Positions 1,197 to 55,964 of a DNA stretch of 64,000 nucleotides are shown one piece after another; position 1 is the first letter of the stretch, and every line of letters starts with the position of its first letter. The stretch is from Octopus vulgaris (Eukaryota). The position numbers and the translations under genes were made by a program. Below the pieces are notes generated by a model. The model did not search any database. It was not told where the DNA came from and saw nothing but the letters and a program-made list of their open reading frames with translations. The stretch spans positions 4,464,001-4,528,000 of the forward strand of contig OX597821.1 of NCBI GenBank assembly GCA_951406725.2, given 5' to 3'.

Positions 1197-2298
1197 TTAT
1201 TATTTTTTTTTTTTTCTTCTTTCAAATTTTCTTCCATTTCTTGCCGAGTGTCTTCCCGACTCCTAGGGCAAAGAAACTCATAGTGTATATTGGTAGGCCA
1301 TTAAACCAAACTCAGTAGTTCGTTCATTTTTTTTTTTTTTTTTTAAAGTTAAATTAAAATACATGAGCAGCAACAGTTCTCACATCGACAATGCTCTTCT
1401 CAATACGTGTGATGTACCAGTTAAGACAATCTTTTGCACTTCTTGCAGGGATGGTAAGCCAGGGATCATTCTCATATAATTTTCGGTTCCCTTCTTGATC
1501 ATTCCTAGTGCTCCTACGATCACTGGTATTGTAACCGCCTTGAGATGCCACATTTTCTCAATTTCAATGAGTAGGTCTTTATATTTTCTGAGCTTGTCAA
1601 ACTCTTTCGCTGAGATATTATGATCACAGGGGATGCTCATGTCGATCAATAAGCAAACTTTATTGTTTTGGTCTTTCACAACAATATCTGGTTTATTGGC
1701 CTTGATGGGTCGGTCTGTATGTACTGGAAAGTCCCACAGAATGGTTACATTTTCTCCTTCAGTTACAGCCTCAGGGTGGTGATTATACCACTTGTCGGCA
1801 GCTTTGATATTGTAATGCCGACTTATTAGCCAGTAGAGATATTGGCCAACTCTGTCATGTCTTAATTTATACTCCACTGGTGCTAAGACTTTACATCCAG
1901 AGATTAGGTGGTCCACTGTTTCAATCATGTCGTTGCAGAATCGGCATTTTGGGTCTGCTCCATTTTTCATCACATTGGCCTGGTAGTTCCGGGTTAATAG
2001 GCTTTGGTCTTGAGCAGCCAGGATGAAACCTTCACTCTCTGCTTTTAGCCCTGAGCTCCGCAGTCACTGATGGGTTTGCTTCTGGTCAACATCAGCTTGT
2101 TTGCTGCGGGTCACATATTTGCCGTGCAGAGGTTTCTCCTCCCACCTGTCAGCCAATTGCTCGTGCGCTTTTTTCATTGCCATCATTTTCACCTTCTTTG
2201 CAACACTAGTTGCCGTACTTCCCTCGGGTTGTTCAGTTTGGGTATCCTGCACGAGATCAATAGCAAATTTTTTGCTTTCCTTGATGATAGAATGAAGC

Positions 2299-2300
<2 letters not shown>
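1197..2300 (-). mobile_element. R4/Dong-clade non-LTR retrotransposon, subfamily A, 5'-truncated
   Basis: ORF 2064-2300 (WEEKPLHGKY) is broken by one TGA, then continues in frame (LRSSGLKAESEGFILAAQDQSL) into ORF 1380-1973. That ORF has a CCHC knuckle (CRFC..ETVDHLISGC), RHD, KPDIVV..LLIDMSIP..KLRKY (restriction-like endonuclease, RLE). The 3' UTR runs to about 1197, and the 5' end abuts (TAA)n. Confidence 0.92.
1380..1973 (-). pseudogene. C-terminal zinc knuckle plus restriction-like endonuclease domain of a Dong/R4 ORF
   Basis: CCHC, RHD and PD-(D/E)-type motifs are present in the ORF track translation. Confidence 0.9.
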
Positions 2301-2357
<57 letters not shown>

Positions 2358-2360
2358 CAT
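2300..2360. repeat. (TAA)n microsatellite, Dong target site
   Basis: Near-pure ATT repeat between two Dong copies. Confidence 0.95.
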
Positions 2361-2885
2361 TCAGTAGTTTTATTTTTATAGCGTGCTTTCACGTCACTAC
2401 CGAGCGCAGCTCTGTGTGCCTTGGGTATGTGCTGTGATTTGTTGTGATGCTCTGATGGTTATTGTATGGAAAGTGTTCTGCGTAGGATGTGTGCAGTGCC
2501 TAGTAGTGCAATTTTCTGTATGTTATATGTGTTTGTAAGTCCTGGTGTTTTTGTTATGTATTTGTCTGAATATTTTTTTATCATGCCTAATGCACCTACT
2601 AGGATAGGAATAGTTTCTGTTTTTAGAATCCACATTCTGGTTACCTCTATTTCCAGGTCTTTGTATTTTGAAAGTTTCTCCATTTCTTTTGGAGAAACGT
2701 TGTCATCTGCCGGTATTGATACATCAATTAGAAAGCATTTCTTTCTTCATGATATCTGACAACTATATCTGGTCTGTTGGCCTTAATTTCTCTATCTGTG
2801 TGTATCGGCATATCCCAGAGTATGGTTGCTTTCTCGTTTTCAGTGACCTTTTCTGGTGTGTGCTTATACCATCTTTTTTCTGTTG

Positions 2886-2890
<5 letters not shown>
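2361..2890 (-). mobile_element. R4/Dong subfamily B, 3' segment (RLE domain plus 3' UTR)
   Basis: The minus strand encodes WYKHTPEKVTENEKATILWDMPIHTDREIKANRPDIVV, then a frameshift near 2740, then FLIDVSIP..KLSKYKDL..HILRRTLSIQ*. The 3' UTR ends ATAAAACTACTGA followed by (ATA)n. Confidence 0.92.
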
Positions 2891-2956
<66 letters not shown>

Positions 2957-2958
<2 letters not shown>

Positions 2959-3205
2959 TATTTTTATAGCGTGCTTTCACTTCACTACCGAGCGCAGCTC
3001 TGTGTGCCTTGGGTATGTGCTGGGATTTGTTGTGATGCTCTGATGGTTATTGTATGGAAAGTGTTCTGCGTAGGATGTGTGCAGTGCCTAGTAGTGCAAT
3101 TTTCTGTATGATATATGTGTTTGTAAGTCCTAGTGTTTTTGTTATGTATTTGTCTGAGTATTTTTTTATCATGCCTAATGCACCTACTATGATAGGAATT
3201 GTTTC

Positions 3206-3207
<2 letters not shown>
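2957..3207 (-). mobile_element. R4/Dong subfamily B, short 5'-truncated copy
   Basis: Near-identical to 5509-5767, with the same truncation point (GATAGGAATTGTTTCTA). Flanked by (TAA)n on both sides. Confidence 0.9.
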
Positions 3208-3254
<47 letters not shown>

Positions 3255-3255
3255 G

Positions 3256-3288
<33 letters not shown>

Positions 3289-3324
3289 GTTATTGCCGGT
3301 ATTGATTATTATTATTATTAAAAG

Positions 3325-3355
<31 letters not shown>

Positions 3356-3513
3356 GTCATTTGGCTTTTAATTTCTGCATATTTGATGCAATCACTTGCC
3401 GGGGCACAACCAGTGCCCAGAGTAAGGTTAAGCTTTTGTTTTCTGTGACCTTTTCTGGTGTGTATCTCCATAATACAACACAAACATTTACATTGTTGGG
3501 TTATTCTAAGGAT
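3356..3513 (-). mobile_element. R4/Dong subfamily C 3' end, mosaic with subfamily B sequence
   Basis: Matches 5917-6100 (CTGCATATTTGATGCAATCACTTGCCGGGGCACAACCAGTGCCC) but carries a B-type patch (GTGACCTTTTCTGGTGTGT, compare about 2843-2861). Confidence 0.7.
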
Positions 3514-5430
3514 GTTGGCATAGCTTCCAATGTATGTAGGTTCCAACTCTGTCATGTCTGTGAATATATTCCTTCTTAGCCAGGACTGGGCAGCTAGAGA
3601 TAATATGATTTATTGTTTCTTGTCCATCTCCACATATTCTGCAGTTACTTGTAATATTTCTTTTCATTACATGTTTTTGGTAATTTCTGGTGGGGAGGCT
3701 TTGGTCTTGTGCTGCAATTAAAAATCCCTCTGTCTCTGCTTTGAGTCCTGAGCTTCTCAACCATTGCTGGGATTTTTCTTTGTCTATTTCTTTTGCGTTT
3801 AGTTTAGTGCAGTATTTACCATGAAGGGGCTTTTCTTGCCATCGTTTTATCATGGTTCGTTGCTGTTCTGTTTTTAGTTTGGATTTCATTTGTTTTATAG
3901 CTTTTGTTGTTTCTTCATCTTCTTCTTCTTCTTCATGTTTATTAGGTGGTATGATTTCTTGTTTGTATTTGTCAGCTTCCTTAAATACTGAGAACAGTTT
4001 TTTGTTTTGCTCGTGTTTTGCCGCTATCTGGATCAGTTTTCCTTCCTTCTGAAGTAGATATTTTTGCAGTCCTATGGTGGTTATTTTATAGTAGTTTTCC
4101 AGCTGTATAAGGCCTCTACCACCTTCCATACGTTGTATATATAGTCTTTCTATGTCAGATTTTGGGTGATGCATCCTAGATCCTGTCATTATTTTTCTTG
4201 TTTTCCTATCTATTTTGGTCAGTTCATTTCGTGTCCAGTTAAGGATATTGTAGCTGTAACTTATAGCTGGGACAGCTAAAGTGTTGATACCTATTATCTT
4301 GTTTTTAGCATTGAGCTCTGTGTTTAGTATTGATCTAACTCGTCTATAATATTCTTTTTTTATTTTCTCTTTCATTTGTGTGTGTTGTGTCTTATCTAGT
4401 TCATGGATTCCTAAGTATTTGTAAGTTTGGCTTTGGTCTAATTCTTTTATTTCATTGGTTTTATCTAGTGTGATGTTGTTACTCTTAACTAGTTTTCCTC
4501 TTTTCATGGTTACTTTGGCGCATTTTTCTAATCCAAATTTCATATCTATTTCTTTGGTAAATCCATGAACTGTCTTTAATAGTGTTTCCAGCTGTTTGTC
4601 ATTTGCAGCGTATAGTTTTAGGTCATCCATATATAAAAGGTGGCTGATCGTTTTGCCGTAACATTTATATCCGCATCCAGTTCTATTTAGCATATCAGAT
4701 AGAGGTGACAGTGCCAAGCAGAAAAGGAGTGGAGAGAGCGTGTCTCCCTGGAATATTCCTCTTCTAATGGGGATGTCTTTGGTTTTCATGAGTCCCTCTT
4801 TTGTTTGGAGGTGTAGGACTGTTTGCCATTTATTCATAGAGTGCTCTATGAATTTTATGATTGTTGGTGCTACTTTGTTAATGGCTAGTGTTTCGAGGAT
4901 CCATGTGTGGGGGATGCTATCAAACGCCTTTTTGTAGTCAATCCAGGCCATACTGAGGCCTTTCTTCTTTCTGTGGCTGTCTTCAGTTATGGCTTTATTA
5001 ATCATTAGTTGATCTTTACAGCCATATGAGCCTTTGCGGCATCCTTTCTGCTCTTCTGGGAACAGTTTGTTTTCGTCCAGGTGCTTGTTCAGCCTTTGTG
5101 ATATCACTGCAGTAAATGCCTTGAACATAGTAGGGAGGCAGGTTATTGGTCTGTAGTTTTCTGGTTTTTCTGTTTCATTTGATTTGGGAATTAAGATGGT
5201 TTTCCCCTTCGTGAGCCATTCAGGCATTGTCTCTGGCTCTGCTAGTACGTTGTTAAAGTTTTCAGCCAGCTTTTTGTGCATTCCTGTTAGATATTTCAAC
5301 CAGAAGTTGGGGATCTTGTCATGCCCAGGTGCCTTCCAGTTGCTTAGTCTTTGCAGTGCCTGGGTGACCTCTTCAGTTGTTATGGGGGTCCAAAGTTGTT
5401 CAGATGCCGAGTTTGTAATTTTGATACTCC
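3506..5430 (-). CDS. Reverse transcriptase ORF of an R4/Dong-clade retrotransposon (5'-truncated, frame intact)
   Basis: The 597-aa track ORF stays open upstream to about 5430 (NWKAPGHDKIPNFWLK). Motifs include NYRPITCL, WIDYKKAFDSIPH, RGIFQGDTLSPLLF, HLLYMDDLKLY, YKYLGI, GGRGL, LHGKY, the CCHC knuckle (CRIC..ETINHIISSC) and RHD. Confidence 0.95.
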
Positions 5431-5444
5431 TTTTTTTTGGTGGT

Positions 5445-5508
<64 letters not shown>

Positions 5509-5512
<4 letters not shown>

Positions 5513-5767
5513 TAGTTTTATTTTTATAGCGTGCTTTCACTTCACTACCGAGCGCAGCTCTGTGTGCCTTGGGTATGTGCTGTGATTTGTTGTGATGCTC
5601 TGATGGTTATTGTATGGAAAGTGTTCTGCGTAGGATGTGTGCAGTGCCTAGTAGTGCAATTTTCTGTATGATATATGTGTTTGTAAGTCCTGGTGTTTTT
5701 GTTATGTATTTGTCTGAATATTTTTTTATCATGCCTAATGCACCTACTATGATAGGAATTGTTTCTA
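5509..5767 (-). mobile_element. R4/Dong subfamily B, short 5'-truncated copy
   Basis: Encodes ETIPIIVGALGMIKKY..HILRRTLSIQ* and has the complete 3' UTR. (TAA)n on both sides. Confidence 0.92.
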
Positions 5768-9684: not shown

Positions 9685-9712
9685 GATATAGATAGATAGA
9701 TAGATAGATATA
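9295..9712. repeat. Compound (TA)n/(GATA)n microsatellite
   Basis: Seen directly. Confidence 0.95.
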
Positions 9713-9892
9713 GGGGGAGAATTCACAAAAAAAACGACGAAGACAGGTGCTGTAGACAACAAACAGATGTATTAGTATAACGCTCGGGAAGCGAAAAATT
9801 CTTTAACGTTTCGAGCCTACGCTCTTCCACAGAAGGGAACGCAGAAAGAGACAAGGAGAGAAAATAAAGAACGTGTGGTGGCTAGCGATCTT
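9713..9892 (-). mobile_element. Dispersed repeat with hammerhead-like motif (family H2, Penelope-like)
   Basis: Reverse-complement homologue of 44694-44875. The minus strand reads CCTT-CTGTGGA-A-GAGC-gtag-GCTC-GAAAC-GT-T-AAAG. Confidence 0.6.
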
Positions 9893-12192
9893 ACATACAC
9901 ACAAACATACAAGCGTGTGTGTCCGTGTGCACGCGCGTGTTTGTGCATATTTGTTTACATCATCATTTACTCAACTCCGTTTTCATATTGATGCATAATT
10001 ATCAACCCCTACATATACCACGTAACACGTGTTACATCCCTGAATGTGACCCGGTGACAAATAAGGGAGAGCATTGCAAATGTCTGTCAGTATTATATAT
10101 CAATAATTTGTCAATAGGCATATATGAAGAGATAAATGGAGTCAGACGAATGCATATATGGTTGATTAGGATGTTTGTCATATCTTTGATAACTAACATC
10201 TAGAAAGCTATGGAGTCTAACACCAAACCAATAACATGTCCCTACATAATCAGTTGATCTGCTAGAAACGGCAGCAAAATATCCCTCAACTTATAAATTA
10301 TTATAATCAAAAAATACATTATGCATCCGATTAATGCAGTCCTATATATTTTATTCTTGGGCCTTCAGATGCATAAGGCTGGTTCCTCAGTTACCTTCGC
10401 ATATAATGAAGGATGCCACAACATTCCTCTTAAGGGAAGGCAAGGTTCACTAGCAGCAATTTTGATGGGTGGACAGAAGACGATTATGTCGAACACAGTA
10501 CTTGAATGGTACTTTATTTTATCCACCCAGAAGGGATGAATGGCAATGTCTGCCTGTGGTGAATTTAATTTTAGAAATTAACACGCCGGACGTAATGCAC
10601 ATAAGCATTTTGTTCGACGATATTATGATTCTACCACTCGATTGCATTTTTTTAAAAACATATTGCCCTTGAAAATAAAACAAAGTGACCTTGTTTTCTC
10701 AATCAATCCTGACTTGGCTCTAAAGATCATCACCAACGACTGCAGATAGTTTACGTTTTGTAGCTTCAACCATAGAAAATACTCTGTCGACTTATTTCTC
10801 AGAGTATTTTAAGGGAGACAATTGGAACTGAAACCGTTTCTCAGTGAGATACCTAGAAGACTAGGGTGCAAAGGAAACGTCTTTGCTCGAGGATTACAAT
10901 GGCTTTAATTTTCTGTTCCAGCTGAATATCATATAAAGCCCAAATCTTTGTGTTGTTGTTGCTGGTGTTGTGATGGTTGTTGATAATCGCAAATAACGCT
11001 GTTGTGTTGTGTATTGGGATTCGAATCAGAGTGTCATCCCATATCCATTCGGATATTGAGAAATGATATATTTGCTTACAATAATACACAATTGGAATAG
11101 GAGAGAGGGAATTATTTATCATGATGAATACTGTTAACGTATTCAAATCTTTTTATTTATTCAAATATAGTAATATTATTTTATTTTATTTCTAGAATTA
11201 TATTTACTTCAACTTGGTAGTTCTATTTCGTTTTGTGCTGTTGCTGTTGGAGATGCTGTTCTAGTTGTTGTTGTTGTTGTTTTGTCATGCTGTGTGCAGG
11301 CATTAACGCATAGATCATACTATTCGCACACATTTTAATCACTGGACAAAGATAGCTCATCCATTCTCCAACCACAAATCATCCGAATGGATTTCACATG
11401 CCAAGCTGTCATGGAAGGCAATATTGATGAACACCGGTCCATTATACAAGTTACTATATATCGCCCTCAAATCGTGTTTATATTCCCAGTGAAAGTAACA
11501 GAGATGGTGAAGTAACATAGACACATGTTAAAGGTTCTTAATGAGAATGCAATTTATGAAGAGAGCTAGATGACAACTGGAATTTATCACAATCTTTTCT
11601 CGTGATACTTCTCAATAATTGGTTTACTATTCAATTTCTTTGAGACGCGAATATCTACTTATCAGTTATGACAATAAAATATTTAAATGATATATCCAGA
11701 GGGTTTTACATTAGTTGCAGCCAGGGAGAGATAGAGATAGAGCCGTAAGGGTAAAAACTGAAGTGGAAGGCTTCAAATACAACATATTGAAATTTATAGT
11801 TTGTACCATCATCAACTTACACAATCACCACGTTTCCTTTCATTAACGAGCAGGAAGATAGGAAACCTATAAAGGTATGATTCTTAAGGAATTCAGAAAC
11901 GGACCTTTGTGCTTATATTATACAGTTTAAATCTAGTGCATGGTGTCCCCAAAGTAACAAGCGCTTTTTCACTATATACATTATCAAACTTTGGACTGTG
12001 AGCATACTGAAATACTGCCTTGTACAGTTACTCGAACTAATTGATCTCACTACTTATTTTAAGTGAGGCAGTTATGCTGTCAGGATCTTTGTCCGAGTTG
12101 CTATGGTAACGATACGTAAACTGAGTCCTGTTGTCAAGCGGTGAGGTACAAACAAAACGCCCCACCCACAAAGAAACAGACATACACTCACT

Positions 12193-21956: not shown

Positions 21957-22003
<47 letters not shown>

Positions 22004-22006
<3 letters not shown>

Positions 22007-22186
22007 TGTACATTTAGACACATAAGAGATGACCATCATAGGACACCTGAAACTCTAGAAGGGGTAACCAAAACTTTTTCATTCCCTTCGAAATTTATCC
22101 CTAATAATGTTTTGGATTTTGGCTACTCCTTCTAGCGTGTTAGGTGTCCTATGATGGTCATCTCTTTTGTGTATAAATATACACTC
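22004..22186. repeat. Fold-back element with roughly 70-bp imperfect inverted arms
   Basis: AGTGTACATTTAGACACATAAGAGATGACCATCATAGGACACCT..CTAGAAGGGGTAACCAAAA pairs with TTTTGGCTACTCCTTCTAG..AGGTGTCCTATGATGGTCATCTCTTTTGTGTATAAATATACACT. Confidence 0.85.
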
Positions 22187-22274
22187 TATTTATATGAAAA
22201 ATATATATTCTATTGACTACTTTTCTACATGCGAGGCCACTGTGTGAAATTTATTTAAGTTATTTTTGTTGTTT

Positions 22275-30442: not shown

Positions 30443-31686
30443 TTGGATTGAGTCATAAATAATTTCCGTTTTCTGGAAGTAAATTGTAATGACACATTTC
30501 GAAATTCAGGCGTGTAAATCTTAAATGGAAACTACCGTTTTTAAAAGACCCTCGTCTGTCATTCGTATTTAAGCAGTGAAAGTATTCGCATCATAGTTTA
30601 ATATTAAATTTCCCTCCCCTAAAGTGGATAAACTGGAAGTGCGTATTTAATATGTGAGAGGTTAAGTATGGAAAAAACGCCACAGAAAGTGCTAAGAAAA
30701 TGTACAGTATTTATGGCCAAGCTATCGCCACTGACCAGCAAGCGCAAATTTGATTTTCAAAGTTTCCTTCCAGAGATTGTCATTTAGAGATGATGCTCAT
30801 CAGACTTTGCACCAGGACCCTCATCAGATTGTGATCATACTGCTTTAAGAGAATTAGTGGAATTCAATCCTTTTAAAAATACTTGGGACTTAGCAGTTGA
30901 CCTCAACACATCTCAATCCACCATCTGTCGTCAATTTGAAAAAGATAGGAAAAGTCAGCAAGTTGGGTGCTTGGGTTCCCCGTGTTCTTAGTTCGAAGAA
31001 TAGGGAATATCACATGTCCATAGGGACAAGTTTTCTTTGAAGTTAGAAAAATGATCTGTTTCTCAATTATACCATTGCAGGTGTTGGAAATGGAACCTTT
31101 ATGATAATGTTCAATGCAAAAGGCAGTGGACTGACAAGAATAAATCTCCACAGCTTATCTCAACGGCTGAGGTATATGGAAAGGAGATTATGCTATGTGT
31201 AGGATGGAAGCACCTCAGTATTATTCATTTTGAGTTTTTAAACCGCAATCAAACACTGAAGCCGTTATATATTCTCATCAGCTGCAACATGTCAACAGGA
31301 GAAACATTGTGCTTCTCCATGATAATGCAAGACCACATTCAACAAATATCACACAGGATAAAATATTGGATTTGGGCTGGTGTGTTCTACTCCATCCACC
31401 ATATTCACTGGACTTTACACCAACTCATTTCCGTCCTCTTCGCTCTGTGCGAAATGCTCCGATGGGAAAAATATTCTCAAGAAAACCAGGTGAAGATGTA
31501 TGTGGAAAGCTTCTTTGTGTCGAGGGCAACTGAATGTTACTCGGAAAGAATAAAAAAGCTACCTAATAAATGACAAGAGGTCATTCAAAATAATAGCAGC
31601 TATACTGATAATTGAAAATAATTCTCTGTAAAATTCTTTCATGAGTAAATGTATTTAACAGAATCGGAAATTATGACTCAACCTAA
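30443..31686 (+). mobile_element. Full-length-size mariner (DD34D-type) transposon, decayed
   Basis: Terminal inverted repeats TTGGATTGAGTCATAAATAATTTCCG and CGGAAATTATGACTCAACCTAA, with TA on both sides; length about 1.25 kb. Motifs WVPRVL (about 30972), LLHDNARPH and HPPYSLDFTPTHF. Many stops and frameshifts. Confidence 0.9.
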
Positions 31687-44196: not shown

Positions 44197-44236
<40 letters not shown>

Positions 44237-44440
44237 CAAAATATGCAACAAGGATATCCAGATGTAATGCAGTACGATCGTTTCATGCGACTCCATGTAA
44301 AACGAGCGCACTGCATTACCTCTTGAAATCCTTGTTGCTTATTTTGATTATAATCACCTTATTTTAATGTATATGGATCATACCACACTAGATTTTGGTG
44401 CCTTCAAGTTAAGTACCATATTCATCTGAATCTATATTTA

Positions 44441-44519: not shown

Positions 44520-44877
44520 ACACCTACTCATGCACACACGTACATGTCAACGTCACCATCCCCTTCCATACGCACATACACGCTCCGTCATACATACGCA
44601 TGCGCACCTTCGTGTTGAGATCAACTCTATTTTATTATCTCCCCTTTTTCCTAGTGATCCGATCTGACCTCTCTGTCCGGCTTTCGCCATGTTAGATCTT
44701 TAGCCACTAAACCTTTTTTTCTATTTTCTCTCCCTGTTTATTTCTATGTTCCTTTCTGTCAAAGAACGTAGAGTCGAAACGTAAAAGACGTTCTCACTTC
44801 CCGAGCGTTAAACTAAGACTTCACTTCGTTGTTTATACACCCGTCTTCCTCGTTTGCTTTTTTGTAAATTCTCACGA
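44520..44877 (+). mobile_element. Family H2 repeat with hammerhead-like motif
   Basis: 44694-44875 is homologous to the reverse complement of 9713-9892. CTTT-CTGTCAA-A-GAACgtagAGTC-GAAAC-GT-A-AAAG lies at 44752-44787. Confidence 0.55.
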
Positions 44878-44883
44878 TATATA

Positions 44884-45479
44884 TGGTGTAATTTCGTATA
44901 CTAAGCAGTAAAACGTGTAGCTACATTCAAGTGGCTGATGAATGTTACTGCTAGTTTAACACCAGGCAGATTCTCCGCCAGCTTGTTTTCGGTGCAAGCT
45001 CTGCATCCATTATGTACAATAGATTACTCGCAAGGGGAGTGAAAGCCTACTACCCTCAAACAGCCAACAGGATCGCGGGACCGCCGTGTTACGAGTTATT
45101 TGGCTCACGTCAGCCGCGCGCACCTGCGCAATGGAATGATTAATAAGATACGCTACTGTCAGTGATATAGTGTAATCAAAGTGACCATCGGTCACTGCTT
45201 TGCAACAAGCAGAATAGCCAGTTATATAATCTCCAGAAGAGATAGAGAGGTAGCGTATACTGAATAGTAAAACGAGTAGCCACGTCAAAGTGGCAAATGA
45301 ATGTTACTTCTAGTTTAAGCCCAAGCGGATTCTCCACCATCTGGTTTTCGGTGCAATGCTCTGCACCCTTTATGTATCATTGATCCTGTCAGCTGTTGAA
45401 GGGCAGTAGGGGTTCGCTATCCCCGCTAGCGATGCATTATACATAAAGGGTGCAGAACTTGCACCAAAAACAAGCTGGA
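44884..45479. repeat. LTR- or pLTR-like unit with a partial direct copy and a partial inverted copy
   Basis: 44895-45020 recurs directly at 45254-45380. 44977-45074 recurs inverted at 45382-45479. Confidence 0.7.
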
Positions 45480-46815: not shown

Positions 46816-47479
46816 TATATACATACATACATACATACATACATACATACATACATACATACATACATACATACATACATACATACATACATCAATACAT
46901 TCATACATTCATACATACATATGCATGAAAGAAGGTTTGAAAATGCAATTTAAAGATGACTATTCATTTGAACGGTTTCACTTTATTAGAAAAAAGATTG
47001 TCAGAATTAAAATGTAAAGCTTTGTATGAGCTTTGATGTTTTACGTACTGCTCATCACAAAAGTATTAAAATACAGTTATACATTCTTTCATAGTAAGAA
47101 GAAATGTTAAAAACTGTTTACAAGATCTGTGCAGCGGGAACTCGTCGTCGCCGTAAAAGTATGCTATATGGTATTGTAAAATAAAAGGTATATATATATA
47201 GTGGCTGCCCCCTCGTTATCGAGTATGGCCATTGCATGAAGCTTAATCAATTTTGTTATCGTGCAATACTTGTGCAAGAAGATTTTTTTAAAGTAAAGAA
47301 AGGCTGTGCACTGAGTCAATCCTACTCGCTAAGCAACAACATCCATAATCCGAAAAGAAGAACAAGTCAACATCATCGGTAACCACTGAGCTGCAGGTTT
47401 TATATCGGAGTTATCCCAGTTACCTGAGGTACTTTCTCCTAGAAGGATGTATATATATATATATATATACATACAAACG

Positions 47480-47508
<29 letters not shown>

Positions 47509-47514
<6 letters not shown>

Positions 47515-47846
47515 GTGTATATTGGCAGGGCTGGCCTGCTAGGTAGCCGGCCAGAATGCTAGAAATGGGGTTAGTCTTGCGGTTTGCATCTCGAGGACCG
47601 AATGTACTGAAGAAGTCACGGACACTTGAATTATGCAAGTAATTCTTTTGTTAAGACCGAAACCGAGGTATGCATTTAAGTCTGTTTTTATTTAATTTTT
47701 CATATGTCCTTCCCCCCAAATTTGGTTCTGGTGTTCGCTGAATTCTTCCTCTAGAGAATTTCCCTTGTAGTTTGATCGTTTATGATCTATTTCTAGCATT
47801 CTGGCCGGCTACCTAGCAGGCCAGCCCTGCCAATATACACATATAT
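47509..47846 (+). mobile_element. Element with perfect ~58-bp inverted arms enclosing a hammerhead-like fold
   Basis: ATATATGTGTATATTGGCAGGGCTGGCCTGCTAGGTAGCCGGCCAGAATGCTAGAAAT (47509-47566) is the exact reverse complement of 47789-47846. Confidence 0.85.
47576..47668 (+). ncRNA. Putative type III hammerhead ribozyme
   Basis: Stem III CGGT(47580-83)/ACCG(47662-65); cleavage triplet GUU (after 47584); stem I TGCAT/ATGTA; core CTGAAGA (47607-13); stem II (A)GTC/GAC(C); GAAA at 47659-62. Confidence 0.55.
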
Positions 47847-47934
47847 TTGAATTTTCTCTGACTCCTCAGATTTTTTGAATGCTGGACTACTGGTTTTAAA
47901 ATGATATTAAAATTAATATTAATTTATCTCCCTC

Positions 47935-48032
<98 letters not shown>

Positions 48033-48838
48033 TTGTGAGGCTCAATGACCCAGTTTTTGAGCGAAAATACTCCGGCTGTATTTATGCGCTGCAACTTTTT
48101 GTCACTCTTTCTTCTGATGGCCTGCTCGCTTAGCCAGCGAGGTGGCGTCATTTGAAGGCTAAAAAAATGCGAAGCGCATTGTGACCAGCGAGGTGTAGCA
48201 ACATCTGATAGCCTGGTCAGTCACGTGATATCATGTGTTTCATATGATATACATGTATTAGCTGTGTGAAATCCTACTGTACGCATTTTGGGAATCGGCC
48301 TAAGTTCAAGTAATAAGTGGATGAAGCAAGCCGTTAAAACTTATAAACTATATAGTAACTTTGTCGAACCACTGTGTCTATGAATATTGCATAAGCTTTG
48401 AAGAGCTTAGTTCATATAACTCTAAGAAGCTTTCACAATATGTAATTATTCCACGCTTATCATGCAAAAAAAGATACTAAAATTGATGAGCTATTTGTTG
48501 GTTGGTAAAATCTAATTTCAAAACAAAACAAATTGGGCGTGAATAGAGCAAAACCAGAATTGTAGTCTTTCGTCTTTATGTCTAGAAGATACATAAATAC
48601 AATGACAGATACTACACAACAAAATTAACATGAGAATAAAATATATTCATATAAACAAATGTGATTTTATTCCCACCATGCAGACTAGCCATAAACAAAC
48701 AACACTTGGCGGAATTCAAACAGAAACACATTAGAATAGATAAATGCATGCAAGTGTAGAAATTGTTTGAACTACACTGAGTATATATACGTATTCCTAT
48801 ATATATAACTATATATATATGCATATATGCATACACAC

Positions 48839-55151: not shown

Positions 55152-55518
55152 GCTTGCGCGTGGGTGATTAAACATCGGTATTCGTTAACGGTTACTTTTA
55201 ATACTTTTCTCGTTGGTTTGCTTGTACCTCTCACTTTTTGACATGTGACGTTTTAATTTGGATCTTCTATATAGTTGAAGCTATTTCCTTCGTCTGGCTG
55301 TTTTTCTTTCTATATAGCGATAACTTACATTGAGGGAGTGTTACTTTAACGAGCTGTATTTATTCATCCACTCGAGGAGATACATCTACACCGCCGGATG
55401 CTCCTGAACCCGTTATTGAGTGTCTCACCCCTGAGGAACCGATACTAGATATGACGAAACAATTGTCTTCATTAATAATAAATTCTCGTATATTCAATCT
55501 TCCTTCTTTCATTTCCGG
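55150..55518 (+). mobile_element. Penelope-like repeat with hammerhead-like motif (family H4), between (TA)n tracts
   Basis: TCACCC-CTGAGGA(55431-37)..GAC-GAAAC-AATT-GTC(55467). Confidence 0.45.
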
Positions 55519-55810: not shown

Positions 55811-55964
55811 AACTGTCATATTAGGGGAGTGGTCAAAGGAATCGGTGGTAAAGTAGATAAAATAATAAAAAATAAAAAATATTTTATTTTTATTTTTATT
55901 TTATTTTATTTTTATATATCTATTTACCACCGATTCCTTTGACCACTCCCTAATAATGACAGTT
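55811..55964. repeat. Near-perfect fold-back (palindromic) element
   Basis: AACTGTCATATTAGGGGAGTGGTCAAAGGAATCGGTGGTAAA pairs with TTTACCACCGATTCCTTTGACCACTCCCTAATAATGACAGTT. The spacer is A-rich then T-rich. Confidence 0.9.

Follow-up and report, generated by a model that had tools for sequence, protein, structure and literature searches.

Hammerhead ribozymes are mostly of type I in animals and of type III in plants, according to PMC7229834 and PMC6155905. [quoted passage not shown] In PLE insertions, an inverted, shorter pLTR is found with a tail on one end (PMC3846280), and the same layout, together with a bias toward (TA)n, is described in PMC8557442. In PMC11167929, a PLE protein cuts and extends both strands of AT-rich DNA, reverse transcription begins at two adjacent starts in an AC-rich stem-loop, which define the tail, and the template is uncut RNA.

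The DNA analyzed in this study is a 64,000-nucleotide stretch of Octopus vulgaris contig OX597821.1 (the window). Positions 47509 to 47939 probably represent a young, 5'-truncated insertion of a PLE end (pseudo-LTR plus tail) in a TA microsatellite, with a predicted minimal type I hammerhead that would cut after A47670 as a dimer only. The assignment to PLEs is based on the anatomy of the insertion, by which the locus likely behaves like a PLE end. This likeliest reading is an ordinary one, and animal genomes commonly contain PLE ends that carry a hammerhead and inverted arms; the locus is a clean, young example, and its two 3' ends fit the published two-start model.

The ribozyme resembles the PLE hammerheads of PMC4209133 in its CUGANGA/GAAA core, the putative extra base after position 9, the enlarged helix II, the very short near-palindromic helix III, and the predicted dimer, and the family resembles theirs in its many dispersed, truncated single copies. 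The insertion shares a short inverted 3' copy at the 5' end and a forward truncated copy with those of Adineta vaga Pen2/Pen2a (PMC3846280), of PMC8557442, and of Anolis Poseidon PAc (PMC11167929), and it also has the one-sided tail, the two 3' ends, and the AT-rich target of endonuclease-containing (EN+) PLE insertions. On the other hand, the tail has 93 bases here, whereas 30 to 40 are usually reported, and no reverse transcriptase or endonuclease linked to the element was seen in the window. Some clades are described as holding the first ORF codons in their pLTR-plus-tail ends, and none were seen here.

Anatomy of the locus and its repeat family

The locus consists of a 58-base inverted copy and a 373-base truncated copy with a 93-base tail, inside a microsatellite. 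Its parts are as follows.

47450 to 47522, no strand: microsatellite of (TA)n and (TACA)n, flanking the likely target site on the left.
47509 to 47566, minus strand: left arm, a short inverted copy of the 3' part of the element, matching 47789 to 47846 exactly.
47567 to 47939, plus strand: forward copy, truncated at its 5' end, from a high-copy repeat family; it likely corresponds to a PLE pseudo-LTR and its tail, and contig depth in four runs supports it up to 47935.
47789 to 47846, plus strand: right arm; it stops at the family's inner 3' end, which lies in an AC-rich stem-loop (loose (AT)n ends; predicted fold).
47847 to 47939, plus strand: tail of 93 bases, present on this side only, that leads to the outer 3' end; in four runs its depth is as high as that of the body.
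47940 to 48033, no strand: (TA)n microsatellite, a simple-repeat sequence on the right side of the likely target site.

An earlier reading of the letters alone (the sequence-only reading) had described a perfect 58-bp inverted repeat around about 220 bp, and the arms are indeed identical in 58 of 58 bases and flank 222 bp. The fold of the inverted-repeat region has a z-score of -14, with 0 of 100 shuffles equally stable. The outward end of the left arm is the family's inner 3' end, and the arm shares T47566 with the forward copy (a 1-base overlap). AT-rich simple sequence that adjoins the (TA)n array makes up 14 of the 58 arm bases. The first bases of the left arm also belong to the left microsatellite, so that the exact boundary and any target duplication are unreadable, which is a further difference from EN+ PLE insertions.

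Part of the 47509 to 47939 stretch is contained in 20 of 24 listed sequencing runs; no RNA run is among these listed holders, run X5 being RNA by guess alone. Logan contigs (filtered set) from four of these 20 public runs (X1, X3, X5, and X15) were aligned to 47509 to 47935 with a cut-off of at least 80%, at which 752 contigs were retained in X1 and 659, 286, and 29 in the others. The summed contig depth, which does not equal copy number, is high in nearly all bins up to 47935 in the four runs, including 47847 to 47935 past the right arm; single contigs are many times deeper than others of the same run (in X15, 413.9 versus 4 to 7). Positions 47567 to 47939 belong to a high-copy repeat family.

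Two 3' ends are found in the family, one at 47846 and one at about 47939, and other copies continue upstream of 47566. Behind 47846, (AT)n follows in at least five contigs (3 in X1 and 2 in X5), while other contigs pass 47846 and reach the (TA)n at 47940; X5 contig 32 spans 47846 with 35 and 62 letters on its sides, in alignments that covered positions up to 47935. Upstream of 47566, different but mutually consistent letters (agreement 0.98 to 1.0) are found in at least 4 contigs of X3, 3 of X15, and 1 of X5; X5 contig 25 has 63 letters upstream of 47566 and is continuous through 47734. Since the arm ends at the 3' end of the family and other copies extend upstream, the locus joins a short inverted copy, the left arm, to a truncated copy. 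The inverted repeat had been taken to enclose the element; instead, the left arm is absent in most copies, and the family runs 93 bases past the right arm.

The inverted junction itself is rare. A single contig covers position 47563 in each of X1 and X3, with depths of 32.6 and 192.1, and the summed depths in the bin 47569 to 47583 are 37,902 and 23,627, respectively, i.e., the junction-bearing depth is below 1%. Both spanning contigs (X1-1 and X3-17) differ from the window by 6 to 7 letters and 2 gaps, and they appear to be more diverged copies with an inversion near 47566. The exact junction of the window was not among the aligned contigs of the four runs, of which X1 was read to about 80%, so its absence there is no proof that it is missing. 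That the inversion lies at about the same place in two diverged contigs is a point against random truncation alone; the shared point may be a truncation hot spot (an RNA start or stall) or mark a sub-lineage moving with the arm.

These junctions bear on two other accounts of the arms. A MITE with 58-bp terminal inverted repeats, a TA target, and a captured hammerhead would explain perfect terminal-looking repeats in TA-rich DNA and a similar junction in two other contigs, but the junction-bearing depth stays below 1% of the neighboring family depth and the family reaches past both arms, which makes such an element extremely unlikely. Among the known systems compared, the MITE class was rejected by contig depth, as the inverted repeats do not end most copies. 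It is also very unlikely that the inverted arm arose from a template switch or arm conversion apart from or after retrotransposition, or that its perfection is a product of assembly or polishing. The missing exact junction and the differences of the two bridging contigs would agree with this; however, similar junctions are present in raw data from two runs, the end of the arm coincides exactly with a family 3' end, and perfect identity is expected at such an age. At 4 of its 373 positions (about 1%; 47711, 47715, 47781, and 47901), the window copy has a near-private letter and nearly all family depth has another, and at 1% divergence two 58-base arms would be identical with a probability of 0.29.

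Within the right arm, a small hairpin is observed at 47800 to 47825. Judged by eye, diverged subfamilies seem to retain it with other letters, and loose ends lie behind 47799 in at least 17, 20, 9, and 2 contigs. This apparent preservation of a hairpin near the inner 3' end despite letter changes suggests a conserved RNA structure.

The hammerhead core and its two candidate partner strands

The core can be paired with a strand on either side, and the elements of both pairings are listed below.

47575 to 47593, plus strand: upstream arm, an imperfect inverted copy of 47599 to 47613, which is either a type III strand (GUU, cut after 47584) or a core-covering hairpin.
47600 to 47606, plus strand: core-proximal strand of helix I, common to the type I and type III folds (pairing analysis).
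47607 to 47614, plus strand: core CUGAAGA and A47614, the latter an extra base between 9 and 10.1 or part of an A-C pair.
47615 to 47658, plus strand: long, interrupted helix II with a GCAA tetraloop (z = -2.6; 4 of 200 shuffles).
47659 to 47670, plus strand: GAAA, short near-palindromic helix III, and GUA triplet, with the predicted type I cut after A47670.
47671 to 47677, plus strand: 3' strand of helix I in the type I fold, forming 7 pairs with 47600 to 47606.

A47614 is opposite C47658, as in the A-C pair at 10.1-11.1 that had been drawn previously, but it is the state of the family rather than a defect. The G at 47614 for which a check had been proposed is not among the variants of at least 5% in the four runs, and A47614 is retained in at least four loose-end contigs of the diverged form. 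It is consistent with the unpaired base after position 9 that is the hallmark of PLE hammerheads in PMC4209133. A canonical G10.1-C11.1 pair, formed by G47615 and C47658, requires C47657 to be bulged, and the folding program prefers G47615-C47657; a bulge in helix II has been reported for D. virilis Penelope. Unlike the PLE hammerheads of PMC4209133, helix II is about 44 bases long here with internal loops. Its distal stem is predicted at 47628 to 47634 and 47639 to 47645, closed by the GCAA loop, in place of the inner ACTTG/CAAGT hairpin proposed earlier, and the family variants suit both forms; A47656G retains its pair as U-G, and C47636T retains a GNRA loop. Variable sites number 3 in the 102 bases of the hammerhead region and 27 in the next 258 (Fisher p = 0.02, a comparison biased by the clipping of diverged ends).

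The downstream strand (47668 to 47677, i.e., the GUA at 47668 to 47670 and seven bases) was overlooked in the sequence-only reading. With this strand, CUGANGA, GAAA, and UH are intact and helix I has at least 4 pairs, as in a minimal type I hammerhead. A relaxed type I descriptor gave three hits in the window, the only one with a perfect core being this element. The unconstrained homodimer minimum of 47598 to 47680, and of 47595 to 47685, is a double type I hammerhead; the homodimer has an energy of -33.2 kcal/mol versus -26.4 kcal/mol for two monomers (6.8 lower), and the predicted intermolecular helix III has 6 pairs around a tandem G-A, a center in which it departs from the dimers of PMC4209133. 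The double hammerhead did not form in any of 500 shuffles of the 3' part and formed with 28 of 256 loop-3 tetramers; 35 of 256 helix III tetramers gave an equally stable duplex. When the upstream arm is included, the homodimer minimum is no longer a hammerhead. For a type I cut, the transcript would then have to begin beyond the arm, on its downstream side, or be assisted by a protein, as found for PAc.

A splice-donor-like motif at 47668 overlaps the type I GUA site, and acceptor-like motifs, recognized as motifs only, lie downstream at 47754, 47770, and 47869. PLE pLTRs can hold introns. A branch and acceptor pattern 60 to 120 bases on was found for 1 of 27 donor-like sites in the window, and no splice joint matching 47668 and the acceptor motifs was among the contig joints listed.

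The upstream arm offers a type III fold, another feature by which the element differs from the PLE hammerheads of PMC4209133. The type III drawing of the sequence-only reading is correct base by base: stem III joins 47580-47583 to 47662-47665, U47584 follows, stem I joins 47585-47593 to 47599-47606, and the core is at 47607 to 47613. Thus helices I and II are closed, helix III is open, and the core is intact, as in a type III hammerhead. All 12 pairs of stems III and I are standard, as are three GTC/GAC pairs, and 3 more lie beyond a bulge. Of 111,934 background positions, 5 allow a 4-bp stem III together with a 5-bp stem I strand, which corresponds to about 0.3% per 60 nt, and 159 of 20,000 shuffles of 47567 to 47598 gave a type III fold as stable (p of about 0.008); by these models, the arm is modestly above chance. 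When forced, however, the type III fold is never the minimum, and its energy exceeds that of the free ensemble by 4.3 to 14.0 kcal/mol in all seven stretches. The long helix II would also place its loop far from the 5-base loop 1.

The arm likely folds as a core-covering hairpin, which among forced folds is 2.4 kcal/mol more stable than type III (-21.1 versus -18.7 kcal/mol), although taken alone it is no more stable than shuffles (z = -0.8). Stem I exists because the arm copies the 5' strand of the core as a hairpin, and stem III nearly follows too, because the core ACUG and the helix III ACCG differ by one letter. It is nevertheless possible, if unlikely, that within the same PLE-type insertion the core uses the upstream arm, as a type III monomer cut after U47584, alone or beside the dimer cut. 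In addition to the pairing statistics above, this would be in keeping with a type III monomer about 1 kcal/mol more stable than the type I monomer (4.9 versus 6.1 kcal/mol above the free ensemble for 47575 to 47680) and with the lack of variants of at least 5% in 47576 to 47598, where the main subfamily has 0 variable sites in 23 bases. Moreover, one X3 contig joins 30 unmatched letters exactly at 47585 and an X15 contig begins there (2 of 32 among the pieces listed). Besides the greater stability of the hairpin, the evidence against it is that one diverged X5 contig has an A-C mismatch at the second pair of stem I, which breaks the stem, that no pile-up is seen at either cut site among the ends listed (47585: 24 of 152 loose ends), and that 18 bases preceding the site are retained in this copy. 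A type III cut, if true, would allow the switching-on of PLE ribozymes to be tested in a simple way.

Also unlikely is a two-way hammerhead, in which one core would cut upstream in cis (type III, 47584, monomer) and downstream in trans (type I, 47670, dimer). Folding, dimerization, or removal of the downstream strand would pick the cut, and a double cut would free an 86-base core. A full-text literature search gave no report of one natural core with both type I and type III topologies. By comparison with plant LTR retrozymes (PMC6155905, PMC7229834), a type III topology can be drawn, but direct LTRs and a hammerhead pair are lacking: there is one core, the GC content is low, the repeats are inverted and without a core, and type III is not the predicted minimum. 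The working form is predicted to be the two-molecule type I that is usual in PLEs, which fits better than the plant-like type III that had been put forward as the working topology.

Proposed origin of the insertion

An inverted 3' copy, a truncated copy, and a one-sided tail in (TA)n together make up the published PLE footprint. The PLE features present are the 5' truncation with an adjoining inverted 3' copy, the one-end tail with two alternative 3' ends, and the AT-rich/(TA)n target at this locus and at no fewer than five loose ends, the last of which is weak alone in a genome rich in (TA)n. From the published PLE biochemistry, we infer a two-primer account of the locus. A PLE reverse transcriptase/endonuclease supplied in trans would cut both strands of the AT-rich target and thereby prime two cDNAs, the first starting at the outer site (373 bases) and the second at the inner site (58 bases). 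Joining of the two cDNA ends head to head would give an inverted repeat with the tail on one side alone. The arms would be identical because the insertion is young, and uncut RNA would have served as the template, as this copy has both candidate cut sites intact. The upstream arm would fold back on the core and likely hold the ribozyme off, the type III fold being a by-product of that hairpin. This account differs from that favored in PMC3846280, where inverted junctions are attributed to self-priming, a mechanism that may apply here as well.

No PLE-type reverse transcriptase or GIY-YIG endonuclease frame linked to the family was seen in the 64-kb window. None of the three forward frames has a start codon in the family state that is open through the tail; the one ATG from which a frame stays open to the end depends on A47901, a position with T in nearly all of the family depth. 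The lack of an ORF start in the pLTR and tail is expected if the family is non-autonomous. In X1, 536 of 752 contigs are at least 95% alike, and with the divergence of about 1% and the protein-free body this bears out the earlier proposal of a young, ribozyme-bearing, non-autonomous retroelement copy; what did not survive of that proposal are the enclosing arms, the lesion at A47614, and type III as the working form.

A short, protein-free element with a type I hammerhead also recalls the animal non-LTR retrozymes, which are PLE-related and have been proposed as PLE derivatives (PMC7229834; bioRxiv 10.64898/2026.07.22.740005). The locus could then be a retrozyme monomer, from tandem units freed by type I cuts, circularized, and retrotransposed in trans. 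The size of about 370 bases, the low GC content, the type I motif, and the absence of an ORF would suit such a monomer, but we consider it quite unlikely. Unlike these retrozymes, the unit is not tandem at 47509 to 47939, where the sequence-only reading had proposed to look for an array, and no joint of the 3' end back to the upstream part is among the joints listed. In addition, the core features are minimal-PLE rather than canonical, and the inverted arm and the tail are marks of a PLE insertion.

Rfam hammerhead models gave no match to the element, even at an E value of 10, and 0 hits at the gathering score over the 64-kb window. The window holds no second copy of the element and no motif from the upstream part of the family. 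A pattern scan of metagenomes gave 13 matches, none similar beyond the pattern (best, 22 bases), which were taken as chance, and the genome and viral collections gave 0 matches to the element. The literature searches listed no paper on the 47567 to 47939 repeat family; the family may already stand in Repbase or Dfam, and close relatives may figure in the alignments of PMC4209133.

Other elements in the window

Non-LTR retrotransposon pieces are located at 1380 to 5536 on the minus strand, with a reverse transcriptase frame of 676 residues (PF00078, E = 5e-33), and (TAA)n arrays surround the C-terminal fragments there; the pieces may resemble R4/Dong elements. A fragment of a Mariner-type transposase is found at 31055 to 31573 (PF01359, E = 6e-10), and imperfect palindromic, MITE-like elements of 120 to 230 bases (77 to 85%) are found at 21983 to 22208, 55811 to 55964, and 44231 to 44352. 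A core-like motif, CTGAGGA...GAAAC, lies at 55431 on the plus strand. A dispersed repeat with two copies (9708 to 9896 and 44689 to 44882; 77%) has a possible decayed hammerhead-like stretch near 44760. In the repeat at 44895 to 45478, 130 bases are repeated directly (82%, spacing 359) and 97 bases in inverted orientation (77%), and a decayed type I hammerhead-like match is observed at 45073 to 45119 on the minus strand (Rfam, 16.7 bits, below threshold); this repeat is possibly an older insertion of the PLE or retrozyme type.
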